Shown: positions 3,001 to 62,759 of the stretch, piece after piece
How the letters are laid out: each line of letters begins with the position of its first letter
Numbering within the stretch: the first letter of the stretch is position 1
DNA from: Paraspadella gotoi
Lineage: Eukaryota; Animalia; Chaetognatha
NCBI GenBank assembly: GCA_051294375.1
Contig: CM119267.1
Location: 26,399,324 to 26,463,323 of the forward strand
Direction: 5' to 3'
DNA length: 64,000 bases
Notes under the pieces: model-generated
Databases searched by the model: none
Told to the model about the DNA's origin: nothing
What the model saw: the letters and a program-made list of their open reading frames with translations, nothing else
Position numbers and translations under genes: made by a program

Positions 3001-4662
3001 GACGGCGACACGCGTCCTTGGCGGCGGGACTTGCAAGCGTAGAAAGGCGCCCGATCGACGTGCTGGGTCGGAACCTCACCTCTTCCATCTCCCGATGAGG
3101 GTTGTGTCCAGTCCCGGAAGCTGGGTGCGACGCCCGTTTTGTGCCGTCCAGGCGGTGAAGGCTGACGCGTTGGTCTAGAGGCCGAGGCAGGGAGCCGTGG
3201 GCGGACTCTCTTCCTTGGAAGCGAAGGACATCGTCTCAGAGGGTACCAGCGGGCGAAGGGAAAGGCGAAGTGAAAAGTCGTACCCGTCGATAAGAAATTC
3301 ACCATGAACGCAAGCAAAAAAACGCGAGAATTTAGATTACATATCAAAATACGAGGGAAACCCCCCCCTTCTTTCTCTCTAATCCACAAATATTCAGCAA
3401 AAAAGAAAATATCTTGAAAACTTAAACACAACACAGAAAAAAAACGGAAACCGGAACTCACACCACGGAACCCACACCCACCCGAGAGCTGAAGCACCGC
3501 AGTAGTGCCCCGACTGTTCGTTATCGTCAGGCGGGGCAGAATGTGTGGGGGTTCTCGATAAGATTCATAATATTCCATTCAGAATTACAGATTCTCTATT
3601 CGAAACCCCCCCCCACGAATTAAGCCTGCAGAAGTAACGAGAAAAAAACGCGGGCGTTGAGTGAACATCATAATATAAAAAATATAAAAACGAAAAGAAA
3701 GAAAGGAAAAGAGAAACAAAAATTTATGAGGTCAAATAAGAATTGCACGGCAAATAACGAAGCCTCTATCAAGCACCTGCGCTTTCGCTCCATCTGCCAA
3801 CGCGATCGATCCTCTTCGAATAAAGGAACGCCACAGGTTATACGCCGAGCCCGCTGGCGATTTTCACATCTCCGGGACCTATAAGCCAAAATCTCCTGGC
3901 ATGTCCTGCGACCCGGCTTAGGCCGTCCTTTCAATAAGCTCCAGGCCTCGACCTTGCACGCCTCCGCGGTGCGTTAGCGAATCCACGCCCAACCCGAACC
4001 CCACAGTCCCCCGGGGGGTCTCGCGCCGCCCTGCCCAGCGCGCGGCCCTCGCAATCGCGGCGACCGTGAAGCTCGCAGGTAACGGAAGACAGCGCCTAAA
4101 GCAGAGGAGGGTGAGAAGAAACACCGACCGGGCGCGAGCATCTGCGACGCCAGTCGACGCAGCCCACGATGCGAATCTCAGGGTCCCTGCAAACCCTGTG
4201 GTCGAAACTAAGATTTCGTTCGAACTGCGTACCTCGCGCCGATCTTCTCCTGAGATCTTAATCGCGGCATTCTTGACTGATCGTCGGCAAATAAACACAA
4301 AAGGAGTTCACGAGGCGTCGAAATGTTCAAAATACGATAGTGAAAAGCAATAATATCGAAGGAAAAGTCCGATAATAATCGAAAAAAAGCGCTAAAAATA
4401 AGCGAAAGCGACTGTATCACATAGAGCGCGAAAAAAGAGGAAGACAGTGACGCGTCCCGGCTGCAGCACTGCACTTCGACAGTCAGGACGTGCAGCTCGG
4501 GATGGGCCTGCAGCAGCTCTGCTGCCCGCTGAGGCCGGCGGAGAGTATTTTTTCGTTTGACTTTTGTTTCTGTTTCACATGTCTGGTCACAGCGCGGTTT
4601 CGTTGTCTCGCCTTTTGGGGAGACAAAAAGGCTAATTGTGGGGGGGTTTCGAATAAGAGAAT
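1..4662 (-). mobile_element. DIRS-type tyrosine-recombinase retrotransposon, copy 1 (frameshifted; 3' end runs off the window)
   Basis: Minus-strand fragments in DIRS order: gag-like (~3300-2300), RT (WRPILNLKR, ASIDLRDAY, YKVLPFG..GPWLFTK, LLYIDDIL), RNase H (TTDASQ, THIN), methyltransferase-like domain (IDLFAT, FLFPPPPLL, QKWFPSLL), start of YR. Left ITR ~4445-4662 ending in ATT on the minus strand; ICR at 3543-3626. Confidence 0.9.
3543..3626 (-). other. DIRS internal complementary region (ICR), copy 1
   Basis: Arm-spacer-inverted arm; 3591-3626 (attctctattcgaaacccccccccacgaattaagcc) is the near-exact reverse complement of the element terminus 4630-4662. Confidence 0.8.
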
Positions 4663-8770: not shown

Positions 8771-9301
8771 TTTTTAATAAAAACAAATTCGTTGAAGAAG
8801 CAAATTTCAAACTATTTCTTAATCTCTGTACTCAACGAAACAGAAAGGAATAATACAATGACTCCAAACATATAAAATTTCTTCTCAATTTTAAATTGAG
8901 AAGAAATACTTGTAAATATTTATTGTTTTCAGTAATAAATTACTGAATTATTCTCCTATACCTTATTGTTTGCCCAATTATTCCCCAAAGGAGAAGCAAT
9001 ATTGTCAAGTACTTTGTTCCTTAGTTTGTATTATAAGTCACATCAACTGTAAATATGGTCAGTTCGAACCCCTAAGGTCCGAACTTCAGGGGGGGATGAG
9101 GCGACTTACGATCGGTCTCTCTCTCTCTGAACCTTCCTCTCTCCTCTTACTTCGTGCCGGTCAGTCCCCATGGTCACTTTGCCCTCGCACTGACCACGAT
9201 AACCTTACTATAAAGGTGTCCAGTGGACACTGTCCACTGTCCGTTTACGTTTAGTGTCCCAAATCTGGGCGACAAATAAAAACCAAAAAAAATGCTGGCA
9301 C

Positions 9302-9427
9302 CGGGGGTGAAAAGGCCAAATTTGGTTCCTCTGTCGTAAACGAGATTAAATTCTACGTAGCGACCCCGCCGCAGGAGCTGCCATCGACGATCGGCCCATG
9401 AGTAACCGTCGTGTTTGTGTTTGGCCA
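9302..9427 (-). CDS. CPOX: Coproporphyrinogen III oxidase, exon 6
   Basis: [28 protein letters not shown] signature; cag acceptor, probable GTGCCA donor at 9301. Final exon not found in window. Confidence 0.9.
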
Positions 9428-9501
9428 CTGAAAAGAGAAGAGAAAATTACTCGGTGAAAGAGGAAGACATCGGGCGGACGAGTTTCGGAGATCTCACTCA
9501 C

Positions 9502-9653
9502 CAAGAGGAGCATAGGAGGGAAGGACAGAGTTGGCGGCGTCGACGAGAAAGGTGAAGGCAGCGTCGAGATTCGGTGTCTCCAAATCGTCGAAGAAAATCC
9601 CACCAACGCCGCGACGCTCACCGCGGAAAGGATTCAAGAAGTATTCGTCGCAC
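9502..9653 (-). CDS. CPOX: Coproporphyrinogen III oxidase, exon 5
   Basis: [24 protein letters not shown]; AG/GT boundaries, phases consistent. Confidence 0.95.
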
Positions 9654-9720
9654 CTGGATAACGAGAGGCCCTCAGCAATAGCAATAGCAAAAAAAAAAAA
9701 AAAAAAATGAATTGGGTTAC

Positions 9721-9888
9721 CATTTCTTAAACTCTTTGTAGCGAGTGGGGTGATGCTTGTCGCAGGCGGCCTTCAACGTCTTATGAAAGTGGACAAAGTC
9801 TTCCTCATTGTAGACGTAGGGAGTCAAGTCGGTACCGCCGCCAAACCAGGCCGTCGTCGCTCCGTCGTCGTCGCGGATCTCAAAATAC
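9721..9888 (-). CDS. CPOX: Coproporphyrinogen III oxidase, exon 4
   Basis: [35 protein letters not shown]; AG/GT boundaries. Confidence 0.95.
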
Positions 9889-9948
9889 CTGGAGGTGAAG
9901 AGCGAAGAGAAGCAAAGGAAATGAAGGCGAAAAGATACCAACGCTCAC

Positions 9949-10059
9949 CTGTAATTAAAGTGGACCGTGGGAACGTGAGGATTTCTAGGGTGGATAACGG
10001 AGCTGATCCCACAGGCGAAAAAATTCGGCTCCTCCGCTGAAAATTGGCGTCCACGTGAC
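9949..10059 (-). CDS. CPOX: Coproporphyrinogen III oxidase, exon 3
   Basis: [25 protein letters not shown]; AG/GT boundaries. Confidence 0.95.
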
Positions 10060-10149
10060 CTGAAAAGTATTTGGTAATTGTTCTACTTAATAAATTTCAT
10101 CAACTGAAAGGTTTACAAGAAAAACAGTGCATGTTTTTGTCAAAGAACA

Positions 10150-10388
10150 CGCCTCCCGTATAGCTTGGTGAAACTCAGCTCGTCCCATTGGCTTGGACAG
10201 CTAAGTACTCGTTCACTAACCCTGAGTTCGGGGTTTAATCCCCTCACAGTCACTCTGGTTAAAGTGTGATGGACCGATGGTGTTGGCATAAACACGCCAG
10301 TGACAGAGTGGTCATTGCAAGTCCAAAGCCCTGAGCGCCAGCTGTCGGGAGATGCCTCACACCCCGGGCATCACACATGTTCCCCCCA
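10150..10388 (+). mobile_element. tRNA-headed SINE-like repeat (family A) carrying a twister-like core
   Basis: A-box-like TAGCTTGGTG, B-box-like GGTTTAATCCC; diverged independent copy at 29494-29735. Confidence 0.7.
10247..10346 (+). ncRNA. Candidate P5-type twister ribozyme
   Basis: taaa-GTGT-GA-TGG-[P1 hairpin]-TAA-ACAC-GC-C-[P3 agtgac/gtcatt]-G-CAAG-TCCAAAGC-CCTG-A: P2 GTGT/ACAC, T1 TGG/CCA, T2 GC/GC. Confidence 0.7.
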
Positions 10389-11067
10389 TTTTATTGCTTC
10401 ATTTTAGAAAATGCTCTTTTGCTTTTTCGAACCAAAAATCGGTTCTGACCAAATCACTGAACCAAATTTGATACGATACAAATGGGACTATCGTGGCGAT
10501 TTTCAATATTGTACCCCTGAGCTATGGTACAGAGCCATGGGGGGTCACCCAAAGGGGGCAAAAAATGACCAAATATTTATTTAAAAAAAGATAAATTTTT
10601 TTTCATAGATGATTTGCATTACTTTGTAGAAAAAACATTTTAAAAACGAAAACTTGAATGAACCGCCTATGTTCATGATCCTGGAAATAGAGGAAAAAAT
10701 TGGTTTTTCACAATAATAGATTTACTTTACTGGACAAAAAAAGGTTTCTGCAACAGTTCGGTTTAAAAAAATTGAAAACAATTTTATTCCACTTGGGCTG
10801 ACCTCTTGTGAGCCCATATCTCGGGTCATAGGTCAAGTTTCAAAAATCCCTTCAATAGTCCCAATTCTATTGCCCTATAGTTAGTTCAAGCAAAATTTCA
10901 TCAATTTCGGTCTAGTAGTTTGATCGGAACCGATTCTTGGTTTGAAAAAATTAAAGAGGATTTTCTAATATGAAGCCTTGTATTTTTATTAATACCAAAA
11001 ACGACATTAACAAAAAATGTAAAGAAAAATTTTTCATTTAAATTGATCAATGAATCCATGAAAAAAC

Positions 11068-11204
11068 CTCATTTGAGCAGCGGCAGCCTTGCTGAGTTTT
11101 CCGTGGACTACGGAGACGTTGACGCCGGCCTTTTCAAAGACCATTCCGTCCTGAAGGACGCAAGTGACGCCTCCACCACCTTCTGGCCTTTCCCATCGAT
11201 CAAC
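11068..11204 (-). CDS. CPOX: Coproporphyrinogen III oxidase, exon 2
   Basis: [35 protein letters not shown]; aag acceptor, AG|GTTTTT donor. Confidence 0.95.
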
Positions 11205-11677
11205 CTTCGAAAAGAGCGATAAGATCATCAACGGAATGGATCTATAAACGGACTTGGTTGGCCAAGTGCTCGTCTCCTTCACGAATCATCAGAATGCCGA
11301 CGAATCACAGACCTTACTTCAACCTTAGAATGACCAATGACCGACAGAGGAACCGACGGAGGGATTGATGGTCAAAATTGCTAAGAGAACTCTAGGCATT
11401 CACCTCTACACCCAAAACTCAAGAAAGAACACTTCTTCAAATAATTATTGAACTGTTTAATATTGTCATCACCTTTGTCTTAACCTTTGTCATCGTGTCA
11501 TCGTTACCTATGTCATCACCCTAATCATTGTCCGTCATAAATAAAACCATTGTCAACCAAATACTTTGCCACTTATTAATTACCCTCGTTATTTGACTAA
11601 ACGTCAACGAGATTATTTTTAAAAAATTCGCCCTCGACTCTAAAAACGGCGACGCGGCTTAACTCACCTCGCCTCAC

Positions 11678-12079
11678 CTGGAACGTTTTGTCCTCTTCCA
11701 ACTTCTCGAGTTCTCCGCAGATCTGCCCCTGCAATCCCATGATGAGAAGTTCCATCTTTCGCTTTGTCTCGCCGCTTTCCTCTATGAGAAGAGATGCGTC
11801 GGTAATCGGTGGCGCCATCCACTTTCTCTGGCGCAAACTGGAATCAGGAGTCATTTTTGGGAAACTCATGGGTTGGATGACGGAAGATATTTCGGCGGCC
11901 AGCGCCACAAAGCGTCGCTCGTCTCGACAAGTGGACCACAGCCATGCCCCCGTAGACGCGGCACCGATAGTCATCACCAACCCGGCACCGATCAAGGGGC
12001 TCCGTCTTTCGAGGGAAGAGCGAGACCAACGTAGAAAAAGGGAAAGGGCACGGGAAGAGCAAGAGTTTGAAGGAAGCAT
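11678..12079 (-). CDS. CPOX: Coproporphyrinogen III oxidase, exon 1 (mitochondrial-type presequence and hydrophobic segment)
   Basis: ATG at 12079; Arg/Ser-rich N-terminus, hydrophobic stretch, then WMAPPITD..KRKMELLIMGLQGQICGELEKLE; CAG|GTGAGG donor. Confidence 0.9.
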
Positions 12080-12203
12080 CGCGTCCAATCGCGAAAATTC
12101 CCTTTTAAATTCTTAATGAACAAAGAGCCAATTACGGATCTATAGGCTTAACAAAACAGAACATTTTTAATTTCATGTAATTTCAAAAATGTGAACTTTG
12201 TCT

Positions 12204-12338
12204 TTAAACTTGTTCTCCGTTCGAGATCTTCGACGTCAATAGACCCCTCATGACGCGGCAGGAAGGAAAAAGAGTAACATCCTTGGGTTGCCCGTACACC
12301 CGCTGCTCATCCGCGTATACGTAAGGAAGTCGCAGAAC
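12204..12338 (-). CDS. SMG8: SMG8 last exon (exon 9)
   Basis: cag|VLRLPYVYADEQRVYGQPKDVTLFPSCRVMRGLL..stop continues exon 8 (..NCVW) in phase 0 and resembles the SMG8 C-terminal WVLRFPYAY motif. Confidence 0.85.
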   Translation of the reverse strand, partial: VLRLPYVYADEQRVYGQPKDVTLFPSCRVMRGLLTSKISNGEQV

Positions 12339-12429
12339 CTGTAATGTGGAATGGGATTCATTATAAGTATTTTATTTTCATAAAACTTCATTATAAGTAT
12401 TTAATGCTTAGTGTATAACATAAAGTATA

Positions 12430-12869
12430 GGGTAGAGGGACCACATTGCTATCAATAGAAATAAAAAACTACAATCAATATATATTTATACATATTTACA
12501 CACATACACATATACATACATATATACAAGCACACAAATCAACAGAAAGAGACACTAATAAAAACATAGAGACAAAGAGACGCTAAAAAATAAATGAGAC
12601 GCTAAAAATGAAATGAGACGCTAACAAATACACAAAAAACTATATCACATAAGTATAAGAGTACATCACATATATAAAACAAAGAGTAAATCACGTATAT
12701 AAAAACAAAAAGACGCTAATAAAAAATGATAATAATAATAAAAACAAAGACGCTAATGAACAAATAAAATGATAACGATAATAATAATAAAAACAAAGAC
12801 GCTAATAAACAAAGAGACGCTAATAAAAATACCACATAAAAAATATAAATATGTGGTCCCTCAATACCC
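12430..12869. mobile_element. MITE-like element with internal gacgctaa repeats
   Basis: Inverted ends gggtagagggaccacat / atgtggtccctcaataccc. Confidence 0.5.
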
Positions 12870-14088
12870 AATACGAGATACCCTCATTGATTAAATAAGT
12901 TCCAATAGCCAATTTTAACCCGTTTAATTAAGTTTCCCAACTCTATAGTCCCATCCTCATTTAATGTACCCAGTACATTACCCAATAAGATTCGTTTTTT
13001 AAAACTTCCCATTTGCCACTTAATTTGGCCACCCAATAATCTTGTTCTAAATCCTTTCTCAAATGAATAATAATTTTTTTAAAAAATATAATTAGAAGTA
13101 CTAAAAGAAAGGCAAAAAATGTTACAATTGTTTCTAATTGGAAATTTTTACAATTTTTTCCAATCATAGCTTGTAACAGGTTTTATTTTTATTTGTATTA
13201 AAATTAAGTTATAGCTTCTAATTAAAAAGGTATTTTAATTTCACATGTTTATTATAGATTCAAAGATTTTTTTATGAATTTCATCTTAAATATTATTTAC
13301 TGCAATATGTAAATTAGATTAAAGTATTTTTATATACTAATTTGGATATTATAATGAGTACTATAATCTCATTTTCATATTGCAGTAATCATAATGAAGT
13401 GGAAATTCAAACAAAAAATACTTGAATCCCAATGTAATATGAAAATTTCAAAACTATTTCAAAATGAGAAGCCATATCTAAATTTTTAACTATATTCATT
13501 TTATCTATATTTAAAACAAATAAGTCTAAACATGTATGTTATTTGTTTCTATTTTAAAAATCGTTGTTTGTAAACAATACAAATTTTTTTCTCACAAACT
13601 AATTCACAACGCAACGAAAGAAAGCATTCACACAATACCATTTCCCTTGAAACTTAACAACTGAAGCCTCCGGAATGAAAACTAAAGCGTTCGGTCTTAG
13701 TATTTTAAATATTTTCAAATACTTTAATTCGAACGTTTCCTAAATAACAAAAACACATTTTTCACTATTTCAGAGTTTGTTCGAGATGCTCTCGTTAAGG
13801 TCCGATCAGTATTTTCACTATTATTAGAAATTTTTCGAGGTGCTCTCGTTAAGGTTCGATCGATTTTTGCCTCTGTATAAGTATTGTATATTTCTCTATC
13901 TCTGGTTCTCTTGCTTATTTCTCATGCGAAATAAATTCTTTGAAAGAAGATTCCTGCTTTTCGATACTAATAATTAAATATAAATTGTTTAATTTTTTCT
14001 TTTTTTGTTGTTGTATTTGATTAGCGGATTCGAAAACGAAAGTTTTATTACTTTTAAGAAAAAGGGTCATTCAATTCAACTTCAAAAT

Positions 14089-17000
14089 ATAAGTCACATC
14101 AACTGTAAATATGGTCAGTTCGAACCCCTAAGGTTCCGAACTTCAGGGGGGATGAGGCGACTTACGATCGGTCTCTCTCTCTCTGAACCTTCCTCTCTCC
14201 TCTTACTTCGTGCCGGTCAGTCCCCATGGTCACTTTGCCCTCGCACTGACCACGATAACCTTACTATAAAGGTGTCCAGTGGACACTGTCCACTGTCCGT
14301 TTACGTTTAGTGTCCCAAATCTGGGCGACAAATTAAAACCAAAAAAAATGCTGGCACCGGGGGTGAAAAGGCCAAATTTGGTTCCTCTGTCGTAAACGAG
14401 ATTAAATTCTACGTAGCGACCCGCCGCAGGAGCTGCCATCGACGATCGGCCCATGAGTAACCGTCGTGTTTGTGTTTGGCCACTGAAAAGAGAAGAGAAA
14501 ATTACTCGGTGAAAGAGGAAGACATCGGGCGGACGAGTTTCGGAGATCTCACTCACCAAGAGGAGCATAGGAGGGAAGGACAGAGTTGGCGGCGTCGACG
14601 AGAAAGGTGAAGGCAGCGTCGAGATTCGGTGTCTCCAAATCGTCGAAGAAAATCCCACCAACGCCGCGACGCTCACCGCGGAAAGGATTCAAGAAGTATT
14701 CGTCGCACCTGGATAACGAGAGGCCCTCAGCAATAGCAATAGCAAAAAAAAAAAAAAAAAAAGAATTGGGTTACCATTTCTTAAACTCTTTGTAGCGAGT
14801 GGGGTGATGCTTGTCGCAGGCGGCCTTCAACGTCTTATGAAAGTGGACAAAGTCTTCCTCATTGTAGACGTAGGGAGTCAAGTCGGTACCGCGCCAAACC
14901 AGGCCGTCGTCGCTCCGTCGTCGTCGCGGATCTCAAAATACCTGGAGGTGAAGAGCGAAGAGAAGCAAAGGAAATGAAGGCGAAAAGATACCAACGCTCA
15001 CCTGTATTAAAGTGGACCGTGGGAACGTGAGGATTTCTAGGGTGGATAACGGAGCTGATCCCACAGGCGAAAAAATTCGGCTCCTCCGCTGAAAATTGGC
15101 GTCCACGTGACCTGAAAAGTATTTGGTAATTGTTCTACTTAATAAATTTCATCAACTGAAAGGTTTACAAGAAAAACAGTGCATGTTTTTGTCAAAGAAC
15201 ACGCCTCCCGTATAGCTTGGTGAAACTCAGCTCGTCCCATTGGCTTGGACAGCTAAGTACTCGTTCACTAACCCTGAGTTCGGGGTTTAATCCCTCACAG
15301 TCACTCTGGTTAAAGTGTGATGGACCGATGGTGTTGGCATAAACACGCCAGTGACAGAGTGGTCATTGCAAGTCCAAAGCCCTGAGCGCCAGCTGTCGGG
15401 AGATGCCTCACACCCCGGGCATCACACATGTTCCCCCATTTTATTGCTTCATTTTGAAAATGCTCTTTTGCTTTTTCGAACCAAAAATCGGTTCTGACCA
15501 AATCACTGAACCAAATTTGATACGATACAAATGGGACTATCGTGGCGATTTTCAATATTGTACCCCTGAGCTATGGTACAGAGCCATGGGGGTCACCCAA
15601 AGGGGGCAAAAAATGACCAAATTTTATTTAAAAAAAGATAAATTTTTTTTCATAGATGATTTGCATTACTTTGTAGAAAAACATTTTAAAAACGAAAACT
15701 TGAATGAACCGCCTATGTTCATGATCCTGGAAATAGAGGAAAAAATTGGTTTTTCACAATAATAGATTTACTTTACTGGACAAAAAAGGTTTCTGCAACA
15801 GTTCGGTTTAAAAAAATTGAAAACAATTTTATTCCACTTGGGCTGACCTCTTGTGAGCCCATATCTCGGGTCATAGGTCAAGTTTCAAAAATCCCTTCAA
15901 TAGTCCCAATTCTATTGCCCTATAGTTAGTTCAAGCAAAATTTCATCAATTTCGGTCTAGTAGTTTGATCGGAACCGATTCTTGTTTGAAAAAATTAAAG
16001 AGGATTTCTAATATGAAGCCTTGTATTTTTATTAATACAAAAACGACATTAACAAAAAATGTAAAGAAAAATTTTTCATTTAAATTGATCAATGAATCCA
16101 TGAAAAAACCTCATTGAGCAGCGGCAGCCTTGCTGAGTTTTCCGTGGACTACGGAGACGTTGACGCCGGCCTTTTCAAAGACCATTCCGTCCTGAAGGGC
16201 GCAAGTGACGCCTCCACCACCTTCTGGCCTTTCCATCGATCAACCTTCGAAAAGAGCGATAAGATCATCAACGGAATGGATCTATAAACGGACTTGGTTG
16301 GCCAAGTGCTCGTCTCCTTCACGAATCATCAGAATGCCGACGAATCACAGACCTTACTTCAACCTTAGAATGACCAATGACCGACAGAGGAACCGACGGA
16401 GGGATTGATGGTCAAAATTGCTAAGAGAACTCTAGGCATTCACCTCTACACCCAAAACTCAAGAAAGAACACTTCTTCAAATAATTATTGAACTGTTTAA
16501 TATTGTCATCACCTTTGTCTTAACCTTTGTCATCGTGTCATCGTTACCTATGTCATCACCCTAATCATTGTCCGTCATAAATAAAACCATTGTCAACCAA
16601 ATACTTTGCCACTTATTAATTACCCTCGTTATTTGACTAAACGTCAACGAGATTATTTTTAAAAAATTCGCCCTCGACTCTAAAAACGGCGACGCGGCTT
16701 AACTCACCTCGCCTCACCTGGAACGTTTTGTCCTCTTCCAACTTCTCGAGTTCTCCGCAGATCTGCCCCTGCAATCCCATGATGAGAAGTTCCATCTTTC
16801 GCTTTGTCTCGCCGCTTTCCTCTATGAGAAGAGATGCGTCGGTAATCGTGGCGCCATCACTTTCTCTGGCGCAAACTGGAATCAGGAGTCATTTTTGGGA
16901 AACTCATGGGTTGGATGACGGAAGATATTTCGGCGGCCAGCGCCACAAAGCGTCGCTCGTCTCGACAAGTGGACCACAGCCATGCCCCCGTAGACGCGGC

Positions 17001-18714
17001 ACCGATAGTCATCACCAACCCGGCCACCGATCAAGGGGCTCCGTCTTTCGAGGGAAGAGCGAGACCAACGTAGAAAAAGGAAAGGGCACGGGAAGAGCAA
17101 GAGTTTGAAGGAAGCATCGCGTCCAATCGCGAAAATTCCCTTTTAAATTCTTAATGAACAAAGAGCCAATTACGGATCTATAGGCTTAACAAAACAGAAC
17201 ATTTTAATTTCATGTAATTTCAAAAATGTGAACTTTGTCTTTAAACTTGTTCTCCGTTCGAGATCTTCGACGTCAATAGACCCTCATGACGCGGCAGGAA
17301 GGAAAAAGAGTAACATCCTTGGGTTGCCCGTACACCCGCTGCTCATCCGCGTATACGTAAGGAAGTCGCAGAACCTGTAATGTGGAATGGGCTTCATTAT
17401 AAGTATTTTATTTTCATAAAACTTCATTATAAGTATTTAATGCTTAGTGTATAACATAAAGTATAGGGTAGAGGGACCACATTGCTATCAATAGAAATAA
17501 AAAACTACAATCAATATATATTTATACATATTTACACACATACACATATACATACATATATACAAGCACACAAATCAACAGAAAGAGACACTAATAAAAA
17601 CATAGAGACAAAGAGACGCTAAAAAATAAATGAGACGCTAAAAATGAAATGAGACGCTAACAAATACACAAAAAAACTATATCACATAAGTATAAGAGTA
17701 CATCACATATATAAAACAAAGAGTAAATCACGTATATAAAACACAAAAAGACGCTAATAAAAAATGATAATAATAAAAAACAAAGACGCTAATGAACAAA
17801 TAAAATGATAACGATAATAATAATAAAAACAAAGACGCTAATAAACAAAGAGACGCTAATAAAAATACCACATAAAAAATATAAATATGTGGTCCCTCAA
17901 TACCCAATACGAGATACCCTCATTGATTAAATAAGTTCCAATAGCCAATTTTAACCCGTTTAATTAAGTTCCCAACTCTATAGTCCCATCCTCATTTAAT
18001 GTACCCAGTACATTACCCAATAAGATTCGTTTTTTAAAACTTCCCATTTGCCACTTAATTTGGCCACCCAATAATCTTGTTCTAAATCCTTTCTAAATGA
18101 ATAATAATTTTTTTAAAAAATATAATTAGAAGTACTAAAAGAAAGGCAAAAAATGTTACAATTGTTTCTAATTGGAAATTTTTACAATTTTTTCCAATCA
18201 TAGCTTGTAACAGGTTTTATTTTTATTTGTATTAAAATTAAGTTATAGCTTCTAATTAAAAAGGTATTTTAATTTCACATGTTTATTATAGATTCAAAGA
18301 TTTTTTTATGAATTTCATCTTAAATATTATTTACTGCAATATGTAAATTAGATTAAAGTATTTTTATATACTAATTTGGATATTATAATGAGTACTATAA
18401 TCTCATTTTCATATTGCAGTAATCATAATGAAGTGGAAATTCAAACAAAAAATACTTGAATCCCAATGTAATATGAAAATTTCAAAACTATTTCAAAATG
18501 AGAAGCCATATCTAAATTTTAACTATATTCATTTTATCTATATTTAAAACAAATAAGTCTAAACATGTATGTTATTTGTTTCTATTTTAAAAATCGTTGT
18601 TTGTAAACAATACAAATTTTTTTCTCACAAACTAATTCACAACGCAACGAAAGAAAGCATTCACACAATACCATTTCCCTTGAAACTTAACAACTGAAGC
18701 CTCCGGAATGAAAA
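14089..18714. repeat. Near-identical duplicate of 9033-13681 (probably second haplotype or gap-fill artefact)
   Basis: Differences are almost all 1-nt indels in homopolymers; a 25-N gap follows at 18986-19010. Confidence 0.85.
14358..17374 (-). pseudogene. CPOX: Frameshifted second copy of CPOX exons 1-6 (ATG 17117) and SMG8 last exon (17374-17241); likely unpolished allelic sequence
   Basis: Same exons with single-base indels (cgacccgcc vs cgaccccgcc, cctgtatta vs cctgtaatta, ctcattgag vs ctcatttgag). Confidence 0.6.
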
Positions 18715-18985: not shown

Positions 18986-19268
18986 NNNNNNNNNNNNNNN
19001 NNNNNNNNNNATAGCTAAAATGGAGTACAAATTCAGAAAGCTGAGCTCTTGGCGATTCCGAAAATGTATTCACTTTAAGCATTTGATGCATTCTACCCCA
19101 TTTTATATCGGTTTTAATTATAATATAAAATAAAAGAAACCTATCTGAAGAGTTGCAGGTCAAACGAAAAGGCCAATCCATCTGATATTTTTTATGAATT
19201 TTTTATTACTGAATTAGAAAAATGTAATAGAGAGACATTTTTAAATTTCAACTTGTATCCTTGAAAAT

Positions 19269-21990: not shown

Positions 21991-21991
21991 A

Positions 21992-22812
21992 TAGGGGTTG
22001 CCAAATGCCAAAAGTTGCTCGGATTTCAAATGAGGTCTCAGATAATATGTGGAGGCCTAAAAAAAGATGTTAGGAACAATCGCCATTTAAATAAGTTGAT
22101 CACTGGCCGTGCTACCCTGCCTTGAAGGATTTTGGCACACCTTTCACTTCATAGTTTATTGTGTCTAAAAAAGAAAGGTTTTTATGTCCACTTAAATTAT
22201 TAGTTGTAAAAGTATATAAAGTTAATTCAAATAAATTTTCAGATCTTAACTCCCTCTGGAGGCTCTGCTGCAGCATTTACAATATGCTGGAGGAGGTGGT
22301 AGCTATTAAAATAAAGAGTATATCTTTTGAGTGCTGATGGTACTATAAAAGGTTCCTATAAAATATATTCATTAACAAGCCTTTTAACTAATTTCATAAC
22401 CTTTTTTTGAAAATGCAAGTATGTCTACATCCTGGAGGATACTTCTTGTACAGTTTTTTATAATTACTTAAATTATGTACAAAATTTATATCTATTAATT
22501 AGATAGTAAGACAGTTTAATAAAAATAGATAAGATAAAAGTTTTTGGTAAATCTTAAATTGATTGACCAACAACTTTTCATGGGAGCCTCTTTTGAAGGA
22601 TTCTGAAAATTTATCTCCACACCCCATCAATTAAAAAAAAGGAAAGTTATGTTATCAAAAATAGCTTTAATAGCTGGCCAAATACTCGTAGTTACTTTTT
22701 TAATTAAAATTTTTTGAACAGCATTCTTTATACGACCTGTAAAGGCATTTCCAATATGCTGGAGGATGTGGACAAAGGCTTGCTGCTGATAAAGCTTTTA
22801 ATTAAAGAATAA
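21992..22812. mobile_element. One arm of the foldback/MULE-like element
   Basis: Nearly identical to 51806-52630. Confidence 0.8.
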
Positions 22813-22827
22813 TCTCTCTGCAACAAC

Positions 22828-28164: not shown

Positions 28165-29493
28165 TGACAGTAGACTATTTTTCACAATTATAAGTTAAGG
28201 AGAGAGAGAGAGAGAGAGAGTTTCCAACAAAGAATTGAGAAAGGACAGTGGTCTGATGTGAGGACAGGTAAAAGGACACAAAAAAGGGGAAGTAAGTTGA
28301 TTTTTGAAATGGTGAAAGTGAGAGAGAGAGAAAGACAAAACAATACATTTCAAAATAATTATTATCAATAATTATAATTAATTATTATTTTACTAGGGAC
28401 ACTCGAATTGACCTCAGTCACAAAGATTCCTTTCACTGAAATTCAGTAAATTCATCGTCGTTGTCGTCATTGTCGTAGTTATAAGATCTTCCGGTTAATT
28501 TAAATAAGTACATACGTACATTTATCCCCCTTTTGTTATTGTTCTCCAACGATTCTTGAGTGAAGCAAATACGATACCATAATCCATTTTGCATATTACA
28601 GTATTCGAAATCTTCTCTAGTTTTTAATGATAAGTGTATTAAAACTTGAAGCATAATTTTTGGTCATAAAATTTTAACTAAACATCCATTTTATATTTAG
28701 AAAAAGATGGTATCTTTACTCAGTTAAAGGGGGTGTTGAGTGTGCTCCCAGATCCTTCAAGAGAGGCTCTCTTGAAACCTAGGCTTAATTCATGCAATTT
28801 TTTTGGATCTGACCAATTTTTGTATCATCTTACATCAGCCTGTAATGTAAATTATCCAAAAATGTAATTTTAAATGGTAATTTTATGAAAAATAAAAAAA
28901 AGGAACAGGAAGTATCCTCCAGGATGTAACCACACCACTAAATAAAATCAAATGTTGTTGATTTATATAGAAGAACATATTAGTTGTAAAACTATGCCAA
29001 AGTAAGAGATTCTACCCTGAATGGTTAGGAATTATAAGCAATGATGTTATCAACTCCACATCCTCCAGCGTGCTGTGGAGCCAGTTGTGAAGGCTGTGGA
29101 TGAAAAGAGCACTTCAAATTAATATGAAATAATCTTTGATGATTTCCTCAGTTGAGTGGACGGAAAAACAAGTCATATTTGATGAAAAGAGCACTTCAAA
29201 TTAATATGAAATAATCTTTGATGATTTCCTAAGTTGAGTGGACGGAAAAACAAGTCATATTTTTTAAACAATTAATTTTTTAGTCAAAGGTGTGCCACAA
29301 ATCCTTTAAGCGAGGGTAGTGCTAAGGGTGTTGAAGCAAATTCGATGAGATTTGGGCAAACATCCTTTTTTATACCCCCACATATTGTGCCGGATGTAAA
29401 TTGAGCTACTATCATTTTGAAATTTTTGGCACACCCTACTGGGACATGACATAAAAAATATCTTACGAAACATTTTGAGGCGAATCCTATATT

Positions 29494-29735
29494 CGCCACC
29501 CGAATAGCTTGGTGAAACTCAGCACGTCACATTGGCTTGTACACTGTCCAATGGACAGCTAAGTACTCGTTCACCAACCGTTAGTTCCGGGTTCAATCCC
29601 CTCACGGTCACGCTGGTTAAAGTGATGGTTTCCGCATAAACACGCCAGTGACGTGGGGTCGTCAATGTAGGTCCAAAGCCCTGAGCGTTGGCTGTCGGGA
29701 CATGCCTCACTCCCTGGGCATCACATGTGTCCCCG
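29494..29735 (+). mobile_element. tRNA-headed SINE-like repeat family A, second copy (twister core partly deleted)
   Basis: Homologous to 10150-10388; B box GGTTCAATCCC; TAAACACGCC..GTAGG-TCCAAAGC-CCTG retained, P2' and P1 shortened. Confidence 0.7.
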
Positions 29736-29795
29736 TTGCCATAATAAAGAGACATAAATTATTGTTAAGTGTTAGTGACAGAACCGTTCAATATA

Positions 29796-29871
29796 AGCAG
29801 TCTCTGAGCTTTGGATCAGGCTGTAACACCATGTTACAGGCGGGTTAAGCGCCCCGTCCCTCTTAACTGCT
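29796..29871 (-). ncRNA. Candidate P5-type twister ribozyme (family C)
   Basis: Minus: agcagt-taa-GAGG-GA-CGG-ggcgct-TAA-CCC-GC-C-tgtaaca-tgg-tgttaca-GC-CTGA-TCCAAAGC-TCAG-AG-actgct. Confidence 0.65.
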
Positions 29872-30025
29872 AGAACCCCGGACCTTTGGGTTGGGAGGCG
29901 AATGACTTGCCTCCGGCACCAATGGTCGCTGATGAACGGTTGGTGGATTTTAGTCCACCATACATCTGCTAAGACCGATTGCAGTAATGAAAAAGTTTTG
30001 GAAAAAAGGCCTACTCAGTACTCAC

Positions 30026-31498: not shown

Positions 31499-31561
31499 CT
31501 AAGAATAAAAAAGATGACTTTCGCTCTCAACATTCAACAATATCCACAAGTACAACAGAAC

Positions 31562-31823
31562 CTTCATCCAAGGATTCGTAGTAAGAAAAATTAGCCGCGC
31601 AAAGGTCGAAGGGATCCTCGCGCGAGGCCTGCCTCGTCCCGCAGTCGGAGGCCGCAAGAGTCTTGTTAAGAGTCGCGTGGGGTTTGGCGGGCAGTTGGAA
31701 GTCAGAGTCGTCGTCGTCAGCGATGAGTCGGTGAAGAGCATGAATACAGTGATTTCCAGTCAGCGTTGTCGCCTCGCAAGATTGACGACCGTCACGCCAA
31801 ATTGCCTCACATTGCTCTTTCAA
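31562..31823 (-). CDS. SMG8: SMG8 exon 5
   Basis: CEAIWRDGRQSCEATTLTGNHC..REDPFDLCAANFSYY. Confidence 0.92.
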
Positions 31824-31920
31824 CTAGAAGATAAAGAAAATCCCTCTTCATACTTAATATGAAAATAATGAAAAATCTGGGCGAATTCCTATAATAAGGC
31901 GACAACAGTGCAAGTATCAC

Positions 31921-32088
31921 CCGTTTCAAATGCGCTCCATAAGAAGGACCACGTGCATGCGTGTTGTAGACAGTCCTGGCGTGCGCGAAACGCTTTTGGT
32001 GAAAAGAGCGCGTGTAGTGAGACAAGACGCCCTCTTGATAAGTCGCCAAAGCGACGGGCACGACCTTCGAACACCGCGCTTCCGAAAA
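31921..32088 (-). CDS. SMG8: SMG8 exon 4
   Basis: FSEARCSKVVPVALATYQ..HYT..HARGP. Confidence 0.92.
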
Positions 32089-32211
32089 CTAAAAAATCTT
32101 AAAGTATAATAAATCTCGCCAGACGTTACTATCAAATAAAATTAATGAAAAAATCTTAAAATTACATTGATTCATTGCTCAATATTTATAAAAAAAAAAA
32201 AGAAAAAAAAA

Positions 32212-33772: not shown

Positions 33773-33853
33773 TTAAATAATTACTATTTATCACCACACG
33801 CCAAAATCCTCAACACGCCAATATCTAACAGGGTTACTGGCCAAATTCTGAAC

Positions 33854-51805: not shown

Positions 51806-54800
51806 TAGGGTGTGCAAATGCCAAAAGTTGCTCGGATTTCAAATGAGGTCTCAGATAATATGTGGGAGGTCTAAAAAAAGATGTTAGGAACAATCGCCAT
51901 TTAAATAAGTTGATCACGGGCCGTGCTACCTTGCCTTGAAGGATTTTTGGCACACCTTTCACTTCATAGTTTATTGTGTCTAAAGTAAGAAAGGTTTTTG
52001 TGTCCACTTAAATTTATTAGTTGTAAAAGTATATGAAGTTAATTCAAATAAATTTTCAGATCCCAACTACCTCTGGAGGCTCTGCTGCATCATTTACAAC
52101 ATGCTGGAGGAGGTGGTAGCTATTAAAATAAAGAGTATATCTTTTGAGTGCTGATGGTACTATAAAAGGTTTCTATAAAATTATATTCATTAACAAGCCC
52201 TTTAACTAATTTCATAACTTTTTTTGAAAATGCAAGTATGTCTACATCCTGGAGGATATTTCTTGTACAGTTTTTATAATTGCTTAAATTATATACAAAA
52301 TATATATCTATTAATTAGATAGTAAGACAGTTTATTAAAAATAGATAAGATAAAAGTTTTTGGTAAATCTTAAATTGATTGACCAACAACTTCTCATGGG
52401 AGCCTCTTTTGAAGGATTCTGAAAATTTATCTCCACACCCCATCAATTAAAAAAAGGAAAGTTATGCTATCAAAAATAGCTTTAATAGTTGGCCAAAATA
52501 CTCGTAGTTACTTTTTTAATTAAAATTTTTTGAACAGCATTCTTTATACAACCTGTAAAGGCATTTCCAATATGCTGGAGCATGTGGACAAAGGCTTGCT
52601 GCTGATAAAGCTTTTAATTAAAGAATAAAATCCATATTTTTTATTAAAATATGGTCATATAAATGATAGACTCAATCATACCATTACTTCTAACCAAGGT
52701 GTGCCTACATCTTTGTAGATTCTTCATGTACAGACTGCTTGAAGGATAAATATCTTTATTATATTATTATAAATATATATTTTAATCATAATATGATAAT
52801 ATCAGATAAAGCATCCAGCCTGAGTCAACCTAAGAATAATATATCTAAAAAATAATAAAATATCCTATAATAAAATAGCTAAATCTATTTACTTTAAAGC
52901 TCAGTTTTTTAGGTTTTTCTTTTAAAATGTTATGGAGTATTATAATTTTGAATATATTTTAAATGCTCATCAATTCTTAATTTCCCTATGCTGATATATA
53001 AAAAAGTGATTACTTGATGGATTGGTTTATTAATTTTTTGATTAATTGATTGAGTGGTCAAATAATTAATTAATATGTAGATGGTTGATTATTCATTTAC
53101 AGATTGTTTGAATGATGGGATATCTGCATCATATGATTATAGATGAATATGTTTACTATTAAAACTTGATAAAATATGATTTCATAAATAATCACTTGAT
53201 ATCATATATAAATAAAAAAAAAAATTTTATAATCCACTTTGTCGGTCCATCACTCCGCCCACTCAATCTTGGCACTCAGTCACTTAAATCATGTCAAAAA
53301 ATTGAATTATAATAAATTCTGAAAAAAAATTATATCCATCCGTCTGTATCTATCCATCCCCCTTAGCAAAAAATTGCAATTATTCGTGATTGAATGGATG
53401 GATTAAAAAGTGTATGATTAAACAGGTATAAAGTTTTGGAAGAATCAGAAATGAGTTTAAATGAAAAAAACATAAATCACATTTACCACAATCTTTTTAC
53501 TAATTTTAACCTATAGAGAAAAGCAAAGTTTTTGAATGTGTTACAACGAATTTATTTGAAAATACGGACATGTTTCGGCTCACATTTCTATATCCTAATA
53601 ACAACAAAAACGAAAGGTTTATCGCAGCATAATTTTAACAATTGGATGGATAGATTGAGATGAAAATTTTGTATGGGTAGGAAAGTGTGTGATTGAGCAG
53701 GATAAAAAATTTCAATGGAATTGATGAGTGGAAATGAGTTTTCATAGAAAAACCAAAATAAAGTTGCCTTGAAGTTTTATTAATTATGCTTACTCATGAA
53801 TGTTTTAATAAAATAATTTCAGTGAAAAAATGATGCAATTTAAAAAAAATTATAAAAGGTGAAAAAATTATGTAATTAAAAAAATGAGGCAAATTATAAA
53901 AATGATGTGAATTAAAAAAATAATGCAAGTTAAAAAGATGATGTGAGTTTAAAAAATAATGTAAGTTAAAAAAATGATGGACGGATGGAGAAAAGTGTTT
54001 AACGTCCGCAGGTTTTTGAGAGGCATTATTTCTCTCTCTCTGGACTTTTCTGACGTTAAATTAATCGCGATATCTTTTATCTTCACCTTCAATATTTTTT
54101 ATTTGTGGGAAACGGGCAAGGCAGCAGCCAGATATCATCTCATCATCGAATCCCACTGCCACGGTCGTGTTTTGTCATGACCGGCGTAATATTGATGTTC
54201 TGATATGATTTAAGTGAATGAACACCCAGATTCAGGGTTCGGATGGCTGGACCAACAAAATGGATTATATAAAACTTTTTTTACTGATATGAAATTGGTA
54301 CAACCAATATAAAAATTATCCATTCATTTAATAAATAAGCTATCTTGCCCCTGACTTTGGACAGGCTTTGGTGGTTTAAGGCCTCCATCACTCTTACATA
54401 TATATAATATCAAATGATTATTTCTGAAATCATAATTTATCAAGTTTTAATAGTAAATATAATAATTTATAATCATATGATACAGATATTCTATACTTCA
54501 AACAATCTGTAAATGAATAATAAACCAACTATAACAATGTTACATGGTGCTGCAGACAACGATATTACGAGGTGTTGCGGATTCCAAGGATGAGATGCAG
54601 CAGATAGATCAGGATGCTACAGAGCATAAAATGCGAACGGGGACACAGATGCAGCCGGGGATTGGGTCAAGGGGTGCATGCCAGCGCTGACGCATTATGC
54701 CACTAATAAAAATTTGTGGGCAAATTGTAGGGACTGTAAAAAGAAATGAAAAGACGGAGCTGACTAAGATTTGATTTTTTTTTCCTCTTTTTGAAACTTA

Positions 54801-57363: not shown

Positions 57364-58054
57364 TGTGGATAAGGCGCTAAGTGGGCTGAAGATGACTATC
57401 CGTAACTTCTATAACCCCCTTTAGTAGCCATGGAATGGGTCCTGGGCTTGGAACTAGGCTTGAGGGGTTGCCACGCCCCCAAGGCGGCTTACGGCCGTCC
57501 TCACGCTTCCCACAGGGTAGGTACCGGGTTGGGATTGAACCAGGTACCTAGTGGTCATGAGCTGATGGCTTTACTCAATGAGCCACCGGGTCAGGACTGA
57601 AGGTGTCATGCTTATAGGCGGGGTGAACCTAGGCAATGCCCGACTACATGCCACACAGATTGTAACCCACCCTGCACTGCTTCCAGTGGAGGGGAGGGAG
57701 GGAGCAATCTTCAGCACGTCCATGGGCCTGGAATCAGAAGGGGGAATACGCTCGACAGGATGGGCTCACCAGTGTGGATAAGGCGCTAAGTGGGCTGAAG
57801 ATGACTATCCGTAACCTTTATAACCCCCTTTAGTAGCCATGGAACGGGTCCTGGGCTTGGAACCAGGCTTGAGGGGTTGCCAAGCCCCCAAGGCGGCTTA
57901 CGGCCGTCCTCACGTTTCCCACAGTAGGTACCGGGTTGGATTGAACCAGGTACCTAGTGGTCATGAGCTGATGGCTTTACTCAATGAGCCACCGGGTCAG
58001 GACTGAAGGTGTCATGCTTATAGGCGGGGTGAACCTAGGCAATGCCCGACTACA
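57364..58054 (-). mobile_element. Miniature LTR-type element (TRIM/retrozyme-like): two ~285-bp direct repeats each with tRNA-like box and twister-like core
   Basis: Repeats 57364-57648 and 57773-58054 start TG and end CA exactly at homology boundaries; GATA on both flanks; TGGTGAGCC PBS-like motif 1 nt after the minus-strand 5' repeat. Confidence 0.7.
57843..57923 (-). ncRNA. Candidate P5-type twister ribozyme (family B); twin at 57434-57515
   Basis: Minus: tggg-aa-(A/G)CGT-GA-GGA-cggccg-TAA-GCC-GC-C-[P3 ttggggg/ccctcaa]-G-CCTGG-TTCCAAGC-CCAGG-A-cccg; T1 GGA/TCC. Confidence 0.65.
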
Positions 58055-58568: not shown

Positions 58569-61500
58569 TAATAAAAAAATAAGGATTTTATTCTTAATTA
58601 AAAGCTTTATCAGCAGCAAGCCTTGCCCACATCCTCCAGAATATTTGAAATGCCTTTACAGGTCGTATAAGAATGTGCTGTTCAAAAAATTTTAATTAAA
58701 AAAGTAACTATGAGTATTTGGCCAGCTATTAAAGCTATTTTTGATAACATAACTTTCCTTTTTTTTTAATTGATGGGGTGTGGAGATAAATTTTCAGAAT
58801 CCTTCAAAAGAGGCTCCATGAAAAGTTGTTGGTCAATCAATTTATAATTTACCAAAACTTTTATCTATCTATTTTTAATAAACTGTTTACTATCTAATTA
58901 TAAATATAAATTTTGTACATAATTTAAGTATTATAAAACTGTACAAGAAGTATCCTCCAGGATGTAAACATACTGCATTTTCAAAAAAGGTTATGAAATA
59001 AGTTAAAGGGCTTATTAATGAAAATAATTTTATAAGAACCATTTATAGTACTATCAGCACTCAAAGATATACTCTTTATTTTAATAGCTACCACCTCCTC
59101 CAGCATATTGTAAATGCTTGCAGCAAGGCTCCAAAAGTAGTTAAGATCTGAAAATTTATTTGAATTAACTCTATTACTTTTACACTAATAAATTTAAGTG
59201 GACTCAAAAACCTTTCTTACTTTAGACACAATGAACTATGAAGTGAAAGGTGTGCAAAAATCCTTCAAGGCAGGGTAGCACGGCCAGTGATTAACTTATT
59301 TAAATGGCGATTGTTCCTAACATCTTTTTTTAGGCCTCCACATATTATCTGAGACCTCATTTGAAATCCGAGCAACTTTTGGCATTTTGGCACACCCTAA
59401 TGGCTCATCTATCCAAAACCTTTTGTTATTCAAATTCAACTGACTGTTTACTTATTTGATTGTTTGACTGAGATTGATCAGTCTTTGGTTTTCCTGCTTA
59501 ATACATGAACACTCATGATATTAACTCATTTTTATTACTCGATAAATAATGTAGCCAATACATTAACTCTGTGCAAAACTCATGAATTATTCTCTCAATC
59601 AAATTAAACCAATCAATTGAATTAAATACAATTCGAATCTCGGATCCCATTTTCCCTGCAATGTCGCACTCTGGAAATATATTCTTCATGTCAACATCTT
59701 AGTCATGTGACCCGGCTGTTGTCATGTGACCTCGTTAACGTTGTGGCTATCTCAGGCACATGCCACACATATGTCAATAATGGAATCTGAGAACAATATA
59801 GTAGACTGCAGCAATGGATTTTTGCCCAGTAGCAAAAATATAAGGAAGTATTTATCTTTCATCTGATGCTGAGATGATTGCATTAAGTAATTTACTTGAT
59901 ATTTTATACAGAGAGTCCCAACTACATCAGTTATTGATTTCATAATCTCACAGAGATGGCACTCAACCAGAGTGACCACTACAGTATGAACTTAAGAAAA
60001 AAAATTTTTAACAGCATCTTAAAATTGCAGCAGTTAATGGCCATAGCATAGTAAAGATAAGATGTCCTAGTAAATATTTCTAAATAGAGTTCTTCATTTG
60101 CTCTCTTTAGAATTTTCCTTTAGCATAGAAATGAGCTACTAGCGTGCATAAAAACTGCATATTGTAGGTTTTAGGTTTGCTACATTCGCTACCTGCAGCA
60201 TCCTTATAAATGGCCTAATTAACTCGGGCTTGAGCGCATGTTTTCCCGACTTAGAATATTAGTTATTCCTATTCTTAATAGCCTTCTTAATAATATAACA
60301 TACTGCTAGGGAAAATTAACATAATTAGTTTTTGAACATTTTTTAAAATATGAAAAATCTGCAATAAAAGTCTTTTGTCCTTTTACAACACAATTGACTT
60401 ATGATGTTAGATTTTGATTAAATTAATTTTCTCAAGCATGGAAGTATTTTAATATTTAACAATATAAAAGAAATGCTTAAAAATATTTTTAAGAATTAAA
60501 ATTTTTAAAATGGATTCTGATAAGATTAAAAAGTTAGATATGTGGATAAGGCGCTAAGTGGGCTGAAGATGACTATCCGTAACTTCTATAACCCCTTAGT
60601 AGCCATGGAATGGGTCCTGGGCTTGGAACTAGGCTTGAGGGGTTGCCACGCCCCAAGGCGGCTTACGGCCGTCCTCACGCTTCCCACAGGTAGGTACCGG
60701 GTTGGGATTGAACCAGGTACCTAGTGGTCATGAGCTGATGGCTTTACTCAATGAGCACCGGGTCAGGACTGAAGGTGTCATGCTTATAGGCGGGTGAACC
60801 TAGGCAATGCCCGACTACATGCCACACAGATTGTAACCACCCTGCACTGCTTCCAGTGGAGGGAGGGGAGCAATCTTCAGCACGTCCATGGGCCTGGAAT
60901 CAGAAGGTTGGAATACGCTCGACAGGATGGCTCACCAGTGTGGATAAGGCGCTAAGTGGGCTGAAGATGACTATCCGTAACTTCTATAACCCCCTTTAGT
61001 AGCCATGGAACGGGTCTGGGCTTGGAACCAGGCTTGAGGGTTGCCACGCCCCCAAGCGGCTTACGGCCGTCTCACGTTTCCCACAGGGTAGGTACCGGGT
61101 TGGGATTGAACCAGGTACCTAGTGGTCATGAGCTGATGGCTTTACTCAATGAGCCACCGGGTCAGGACTGAAGGTGTCATGCTTATAGGCGGGGTGAACC
61201 TAGGCAATGCCCGACTACAGATAAAGGTTAATCCTACAAATTTCAAAAACTTCAATGATAAATGGGCTAAAATTTAAAAAAACTTTAAAAAATCATTATT
61301 ATCATTTAAATTTTATAGTTTTTGTTATTTTCATAGATAACTTATTAAAATTTCAAAAAGTTGTATTAATAACCTTCCTTTAAATTTTCAAGCTCTATCA
61401 GAATCCATTAAAATTTATATAAAAAAATTTTTGACATTATATAGTATTTGGATAATATAAAATAGCTTCCATGCGTTTAACTATAAAATAAATCTTAAAT

Positions 61501-62603: not shown

Positions 62604-62759
62604 TGCGGATAAGGCTCTCAGTGTGGTAAAGAGTGCTACCCGCAACTTCTTTAACCCCCCTAACGGCCATGGAACGGGTCCTTGGCATGGAACCAGGCTT
62701 GGGGGTTTTCCAAGGCAGTTTACGGCCGTCCTCATGCTTCCCGCTGAGTAGGTACTACA
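62604..62759 (-). mobile_element. Short solo-LTR-like relative of family B lacking the tRNA module
   Basis: tgcggataagg..ctaca; homologous twister-like core with P5 agcggg/cccgtt. Confidence 0.6.

Follow-up and report, generated by a model that had tools for sequence, protein, structure and literature searches.

What kind of repeat carries a self-cleaving ribozyme in its middle? The preliminary description of this locus read the repeat at 10150 as a tRNA-headed, SINE-like element with an embedded twister ribozyme of the P5-permuted type, and remarked that the predicted cut would separate the promoter head from the body, which is odd for an ordinary SINE. We followed up the repeat in the window, meaning the whole 64,000-nucleotide stretch of DNA that was analysed, and in contigs from public sequencing runs. 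On balance, we lean towards another reading: this repeat with a B box and a type-P5 twister-like core would be a solo LTR of a small, protein-less LTR retrotransposon. The ribozymes in the two LTRs of such an element would release an RNA of unit length, which is probably circularised and copied by a borrowed reverse transcriptase. The repeat, called family A, and its host intron are placed as follows:

10060..11067, minus strand: intron (GT..AG) of the host gene CPOX (coproporphyrinogen oxidase), holding copy 1 in antisense
10150..10383, plus strand: family A copy 1, likely a solo LTR, with a decayed 3' end
15202..15435, plus strand: third copy of family A, located in the 4.65-kb CPOX duplicate and not independent
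29476..29742, plus strand: family A copy 2, both ends present

Copy 1 is on the plus strand and the intron on the minus, as previously described, and with its ribozyme on the strand opposite to the CPOX pre-mRNA, the copy at 10150 is expected to have no effect on CPOX. The nearest named CPOX proteins, from an amphipod, a tardigrade and a tunicate, show 65-67% identity over one exon. Two pairs of tandem, near-identical duplicates were found, one at the CPOX locus (9032-13681 and 14088-18714; 4.65 kb, 3 mismatches, 30 gaps), where the second CPOX copy, in 14088-18714, is frameshifted, and one further along (55382-58543 and 58569-61707; 3.2 kb, 18 mismatches, 57 gaps). Their differences are mostly small gaps and both are probably assembly duplicates. 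The window holds two independent copies of family A, which are 78% alike. GC-rich, frameshifted reading frames lie at ~240-3100 and 19200-26500 and look like DIRS-type reverse transcriptase, RNase H and tyrosine recombinase; two of these frames gave no Pfam match. Pfam matches place exons of an SMG8-like gene at 31527-37636 and of a cyclin gene at 44389-50736, both on the minus strand. A long AT- and CT-rich inverted repeat at 45560-45683, with weak microRNA-family matches below the cut-off, is probably a small foldback element.

The helices of the core were parsed by script, since an automatic alignment of seven cores put P2 out of register. The domain layout was that of Table 1 of PMC8501958, read in P5-permuted order, and gave the following parts for copy 1, all on the plus strand:

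10264..10333: twister-like core in type-P5 order, by strict descriptor and script parse
GTGT 10264-67 / ACAC 10292-95: P2, 4/4 pairs
10268-69: GA dinucleotide
TGG 10270-72 / CCA 10323-25: T1 pseudoknot, 3/3 pairs
10273-88: P1 insert
10289-91: TAA, with the predicted cut after 10289
GC 10296-97 / GC 10328-29: T2 pseudoknot, 2/2 pairs
10298-10317: P3, 7 pairs
10318-21 / 10330-33: P4, 3/4 pairs
10253-56 / 10334-37: P5 arms, 4/4 pairs with the family-majority G at 10254

The twister motifs that had been claimed are present at these positions with all core elements in type-P5 order, and the compensatory pairing of P2 and T1 is complete in this parse. The P3 stem is where it had been placed, with seven pairs and not the six reported. 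Loop 4 has 8 bases, and from the sequence an alternative P5 pairing, 10254-58 with 10338-42, is possible. The order and spacing of P2, T1, T2, P4, loop 4 and the catalytic G and A resemble those of the type-P5 twister RF02684, whose model lacks a P3 stem, unlike the families found here.

A strict twister descriptor found five loci in the 64-kb window compared to 13 in 911 shuffled windows (0.014 per shuffle), and 1 of 109,547 dinucleotide shuffles of the copy 1 element passed it. The descriptor was composed post hoc, with the sequences already seen, and permits a bulged three-pair P2 for other families; copy 1 satisfies it without this option. A looser descriptor was too permissive, at 7.8 loci per shuffled window. 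A covariance-model check, proposed in the preliminary description, did not recover the ribozyme in copy 1, for which the Rfam scan gave neither a twister nor a tRNA match at E up to 10. Against the cut-off of 37.6 bits for Twister-P5 (RF02684), copy 2 scored 12.1 and family B, described below, 25.8, while families C and D gave no match. These scans covered the decayed window copies only, and part of the low score of copy 2 is due to the model treating the P3 stem as an insertion. Since all the scanned copies are below the cut-off, the core is named twister-like and not a curated Rfam member. Pseudoknot-free folding of copy 1 did not favour the twister helices (z -0.33, with P2 and P4 probabilities near 0), and none of five cores had a significant z-score (-0.83 to +0.27). 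These scores and folding results are what would be expected if the core were a dead relic, or a structured RNA resembling a twister, that is passively carried. We consider this explanation very improbable because of how the pairs behave in the family majority and between families.

Majority letters for family A were obtained from contigs of public sequencing runs, and 9 of the 11 listed runs contain the locus or part of it. The contigs aligned to copy 1 numbered 1868, 1084, 185 and 0 in four runs; the zero is from run X10, which is another organism and no proof of absence, and the 185 are from run X9, which is RNA by guess alone and says nothing on expression. Summed depth on copy 1 peaked at 775,903 in run X4, compared to ~260 in the flank, and at 99,298 in run X5, compared to 21. 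Summed contig depth is not copy number, and is taken to mean that family A has hundreds to thousands of copies. A family consensus had also been proposed as a check, and here the majority letters close the faults of copy 1 in P3, P4, P5 and the B box. In run X4, the majority is G at 10320 (292,250/296,715 of depth), closing the fourth P4 pair; C at 10315 (168,770/175,745), which turns a G.U or A.U in P3 into a Watson-Crick pair; G at 10254 (97,353/102,947), which pairs in P5; and C at 10236 (28,586/33,854), where copy 1 has T, which fits the B box. The pairing letter at the four positions is thus held by 84-98% of depth.

The same majority state was found with copy 2 as the reference (675 and 1152 contigs in two runs). 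Copy 2 has a 14-base insertion in its head, has lost 2 bases of P2 (2/4 pairs) and has a decayed P1 insert, and its T1 (3/3) and T2 (2/2) are Watson-Crick paired in the script parse. The contigs on it show that the lost P2 bases, the altered P1 insert and a longer P5 are private to this copy. The copy at 29494 had been credited with restoring P4 and extending P5; P4 is indeed restored, though just by a G.U pair, and the longer P5 comes from private changes at 29688-90. Because the majority letters pair where copy 1 fails, the copies of family A that spread would have had a fully paired core. This evidence for pairing is a majority state and not covariation.

Changes on both sides of a pair were seen between families. 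Diverged cores turned up with the descriptor and with a loop-4 scan. All of them are on the minus strand, at 54393-54350, at 29862-29800 and within five repeats of the region 57364-62759:

29761..29964, minus strand: family D, with TGT start, tRNA-like head and core 29862-29800; its 3' end is 29761 or 29768
54350..54393, minus strand: family B, a compact core with a one-pair P3
57364..58054, minus strand: family C, a complete two-LTR mini element of 691 bp with TATC on both flanks
57773..58054, minus strand: 5' LTR of this element, 282 bp, TGT..ACA, with tRNA-like head, B box and core; predicted cut after 57900
57649..57772, minus strand: its internal part, 124 bp, beginning C-TGG
57364..57648, minus strand: its 3' LTR, 285 bp, TGT..ACA, core 57506-57442; predicted cut after 57491
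60541..61219, minus strand: second family C two-LTR element with the same flanks, in the 3.2-kb duplicate and not independent
62604..62759, minus strand: older, internally deleted single LTR of family C; both ends are the same

A different repeat starts immediately upstream of family B, and no head was seen there. Family D immediately follows copy 2 of family A, in tail-to-tail orientation, and a 9-base stem in it (~29940 with 29785) encloses head and core. In family A, a long-range stem of 10153-10169 with 10338-10352 would enclose the tRNA-like head and the twister in one multiloop.

Across the families, T1 is TGG/CCA or GGA/TCC, with one mismatch in D, and T2 is GC/GC or AC/GT with both sides changed, T2 of family B being altered on both sides; in the script parse, families B and C differ from A in both strands of the pseudoknots. 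P4 takes the form of four stems (CAGG/CCTG, CCTG/CAGG, CTGG/CCAG and CTGA/TCAG). The sequences of P2 and P3 differ in every family, and P3 has one to eight pairs. The catalytic G, the U-A-A site and the loop-4 U and AA are present in A, B, C and D. By copy, GA, TAA and the loop-4 T and AA are conserved in 8 of the 10 parsed, the exceptions being a duplicate C LTR that is one base short and misparsed and the old C copy with AT for AA. The helices are thus paired in the family majority, and pairs are changed on both sides across the four families.

The majority letters and the base-pair changes over four families support the twister fold in family A. We are confident that the repeat holds a credible type-P5 twister fold, and we think that the twister of young copies is probably active. 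A relic would not be expected to keep the catalytic G and A and both pseudoknots while all helix sequences change between families, or to belong to a family whose majority letters improve pairing wherever copy 1 is imperfect. About 94% of the natural type-P1 candidates tested in PMC11662667 were active, which also argues against a relic.

Family C is a two-LTR mini element with a tRNA-like head and a twister-like core in each LTR. Its LTR pair is identical at 276 of 282 aligned bases, and a TGG resembling a primer site stands one base past the 5' LTR; no polypurine tract was found in the internal part beside the 3' LTR. The 4-base duplication TATC represents one independent site. Families A, C and D share the order of leader, tRNA-like head, B box, twister and 3' part, with respective offsets from the TGT start of 55, 61 and 41 bases for the head, 114, 107 and 85 for the B box and 148, 143 and 106 for the core. 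Since its sister family C, with the same module order, is a two-LTR element, family A is probably a solo LTR, and we find an LTR origin of the repeat likelier than a SINE origin. The puzzle of the mid-element cut would then be resolved, since the repeat would be an LTR, as in family C.

The ends of family A were defined by contig alignment and are sharp. The family extends ~18 bases 5' of 10150, which copy 1 lacks, and ~10 bases 3' beyond copy 1; it starts with TGT and in most contig rows ends with GCCATA, thus with TA and not CA. The majority flank in contigs on copy 1 is ATAT, in 3 of 4 5' rows and 4 of 7 3' rows (among 18 of 417 rows listed, and leaving out one single-contig 5' row); these are majorities over many sites, from runs of one organism, and not target duplications of single copies. 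The contigs on copy 2 gave two 3' rows with GCC-TTAA and two 5' rows with ATAG (among 12 of 263 rows listed). No target duplication is visible at copy 1 or copy 2. A two-LTR form of family A was sought through end-to-start joints, and none was present among the listed joints (15/54 and 15/19), a weak test given that the ends are poorly covered. Over the first 40 bases, A and C show no significant similarity (113/2000 shuffles), and comparing the 40 bases at either end between A, C and D gave no significant similarity either.

A SINE head generally starts at the start of the tRNA, and here the tRNA-like part begins ~55 bases into the element. This internal promoter and the two-LTR form of its sister family make the SINE label given earlier doubtful. 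Under that label, family A would be a tRNA-derived SINE with an internal twister, its uncut RNA would be copied since a lone twister with a weak P1 is slow, and cutting would be of consequence solely for master copies arranged in tandem, as with the hammerhead SINE of Schistosoma. The B box, the fixed ends, the presence of single family A copies only in the window and a TAA-like 3' end in copy 2 and the contig majorities are consistent with this, and SINE-like elements with a polymerase III promoter and a hammerhead are known (PMC6765202). However, the tail has at most one or two TAA, with no poly(A) and no long simple tail, and in the Schistosoma model the cut unit of single copies has its promoter 3'-terminal, which is the opposite layout (PMC6765202). 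PMC10886601 likewise describes the SINE head as normally beginning at the tRNA start. There is also no depth step across the predicted cut (10280-10303; 91,503 compared to 92,829 in contigs on copy 1), and sister family C is plainly two-LTR. For these reasons, we regard a SINE as unlikely and prefer the solo LTR. Three other candidates were rejected: a DNA transposon or MITE, since the terminal repeat is only 6-9 bases and imperfect; a tandem non-LTR retrozyme, since a tandem array is absent and the flanks are AT-rich and varied; and copies beginning at the cut site, since the depth has no step there.

The head of the solo LTR consists of these features:

10184..10253, plus strand: tRNA-like head of copy 1, colinear with the heads of C and D
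10232..10241, plus strand: B-box / T-loop motif of copy 1

The B-box-like motif is present at 10232 as claimed. The term tRNA-headed is supported in part, by this B box and T-loop; ARAGORN, Rfam and searches with a tRNA model detected no cloverleaf. ARAGORN found no tRNA in the 64-kb window. The score of the family A head against the C and D heads, with coordinates picked by eye, was reached by 0 of 2000 and 1 of 2000 shuffles, and tRNA-derived heads would be alike in any case. Family C, whose LTR also has the B box, covers 72/72 positions of the tRNA model with its head, weakly (E 0.14). In family A, the T arm alone matches the model and the A box is a loose match. Of 22 distinct viral tRNAs chosen by a 15-base motif of copy 2, 20 went into the model, so that the T-arm match of family A is circular; the motif lies inside an ARAGORN tRNA at 24 of 118 loci. 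Rfam gave one weak full-length match to a plastid family on the antisense of the family C head (E 0.17), which looks like a reversed tRNA.

The P1 insert suggests how two such LTRs could act together. In B, C and D it is 6 bases long and consists of a palindromic tetramer closed by a single pair, and that of family C is 6/6 Watson-Crick self-complementary; the family A majority has 8 bases that are self-complementary with two G.U pairs. These inserts have a predicted self-duplex of -8.3 to -10.7 kcal/mol and no predicted hairpin, and the family A majority would permit just 2 pairs with a 4-base loop. A P1 hairpin had been described earlier; copy 1 does have one, which arises from a private 8-base duplication and does not represent the family, whose majority insert is 8 bases. 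The chance of one palindromic tetramer at the composition of the cores is 0.064, or 0.13 with G.U pairs. There are three different tetramers among the four families, and since B and C share identical inner four bases, the palindromes are not all independent. Amphibian hammerheads with palindromic loops cut poorly alone and well as dimers (PMC7229834). By analogy with these dimeric hammerheads, the inserts suggest that the ribozymes of the two LTRs cut as a pair held together by their self-complementary P1.

Type-P1 twisters can do without P1 (PMC11662667; PMC5408937), and a single twister may therefore cut without a partner. Family A could then be a solo LTR of a Helenus-like mini retrotransposon whose twister cuts as a single molecule, or just trims RNA ends, with no dimer or circle. 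P1 imperfections leave cleavage undiminished in type-P1 twisters (PMC11662667), copy 1 gained a P1 hairpin (-2.6 kcal/mol predicted), and Cassandra replicates with only 18 bases of redundancy (PMC10886601), all of which agree with such a cycle. Against it stand the self-complementary P1 inserts, with three sequences in four families, and the fact that two cuts at the same place leave strand transfer no redundancy. We hold this cycle without dimer or circle to be improbable.

Comparison with known systems places the element between two of them. As in Helenus (TRIMp3; PMC10886601), family C is a small, non-coding two-LTR element with a tRNA-like part and B box in each LTR, and its TGG resembles the primer site of Helenus. 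Helenus likewise has a 4-base target duplication in animals, as seen for family C, and many solo LTRs. The animal LTR consensus sequences in the supplement of PMC10886601 have starts that include TGTGGC and one end in CATA. Differences are that no ribozyme is reported for Helenus and the text of PMC10886601 names a twister 0 times, whereas A and the LTRs of C carry a twister-like core; that the Helenus LTRs examined mostly stop tens of bases past the B box, often at a T run, whereas here the B box is followed by the core and by a longer 3' part, and a T run is absent; and that the two-LTR form is known here only for family C. The polypurine tract, a defining feature of Helenus, is absent in family C, so the element is not filed as a Helenus member. 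Seven loop-4 motifs gave four matches over the supplement of PMC10886601, all in internal parts, in a text whose line breaks could mask a motif, and the primer-site-like sequence of family C gave no match there.

Plant LTR retrozymes (PMC4918200; PMC7761336) have, as in the model proposed here, a ribozyme in each LTR (~300-350 bp), a short non-coding internal part, a primer site, a 4-base duplication, solo LTRs and a unit-length RNA between two cuts. LTR retrozymes have been described from plants, with hammerheads and a polypurine tract, whereas the present element is twister-like, from an animal, and has a polymerase III-type motif. The hammerhead, their defining ribozyme, was matched in none of the families in the Rfam scans of these copies. 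Elements of this type would behave as a cross between Helenus and an LTR retrozyme, with one defining feature of each missing, the polypurine tract and the hammerhead.

Animal non-LTR retrozymes (PMC7229834; bioRxiv 10.64898/2026.07.22.740005) are likewise short and ribozyme-bearing, and they form circles, as proposed here; animal dimeric ribozymes have a stem of one or two pairs under a palindromic tetraloop, which resembles the P1 insert (PMC7229834). The Schistosoma hammerhead SINE-like repeat includes tRNA sequence (PMC6765202), comparable to the tRNA-like head of family A. Both differ in their tandem arrays, hammerhead, missing LTR marks and Penelope-like link, and animal hammerhead repeats are described in PMC4918200 as having no primer site or tract. 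The T-variant twisters of Schistosoma (PMC8501958) share the order and spacing of the core elements; unlike here, they are 5'-terminal in an autonomous RTE element and have a P1 completed by flanking sequence. Our literature search, mostly over titles and the starts of abstracts, found no twister with a self-complementary P1 in print; within open-access scope, which leaves out the original twister survey, Repbase and Dfam, it turned up no description of a twister within LTRs or a SINE, or of a naturally dimeric one. The family patterns found nothing in viral contigs or prokaryote genomes. A pattern scan of metagenome contigs gave two loci in the same bacterial-looking coding stretch, without P4, which were rejected as chance.

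The life cycle that we propose is modelled on the plant retrozymes (PMC4918200; PMC7761336). Transcription by RNA polymerase III would begin in the 5' LTR, at its tRNA-like head, and since A and C contain no run of four T, the transcript would read through both LTRs. Within this two-LTR transcript, the two twisters would swap strands via their self-complementary P1 inserts, and each LTR would be cut at the same place, releasing a unit of 409 bases in family C. Since two same-place cuts leave no terminal redundancy, a host ligase would circularise the unit RNA, as in hammerhead retrozymes. An enzyme of the Gypsy type, which has been proposed as the partner of Helenus (PMC10886601), would be primed at the TGG site and rebuild both LTRs, and an integrase would leave the 4-base duplication. 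Solo LTRs, such as that at 10150, would be dead ends. We infer the two-LTR form of A, the transcription, the cleavage, the dependence on a dimer, the circle and the Gypsy partner.

It is conceivable, though we would not count on it, that the animal hosts a radiation of LTR retrozymes in which each LTR combines a tRNA-type polymerase III promoter with a type-P5 twister whose P1 is replaced by a palindrome, so that efficient cutting requires a transcript containing both LTRs. If true, twisters would have a naturally dimeric form, and these would be the first LTR retrozymes based on a twister as well as the first from an animal. It would also contain a built-in switch, since transcripts of solo LTRs and the finished circle would stay uncut. 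The palindromic P1 offers a sharp test of a dimeric twister, parallel to the dimeric hammerheads, and the two-LTR element of family C is the best bench substrate. With four families in one 64-kb window and 0 above the cut-off, Rfam appears to overlook a set of eukaryotic P5 twisters. Twisters have almost no assigned biological role, and the 5' end of the Schistosoma RTE element was the sole documented link to a mobile element that we found. If a mini LTR element of an animal combines a twister with a polymerase III promoter, the retrozyme cycle has arisen again with another ribozyme class.
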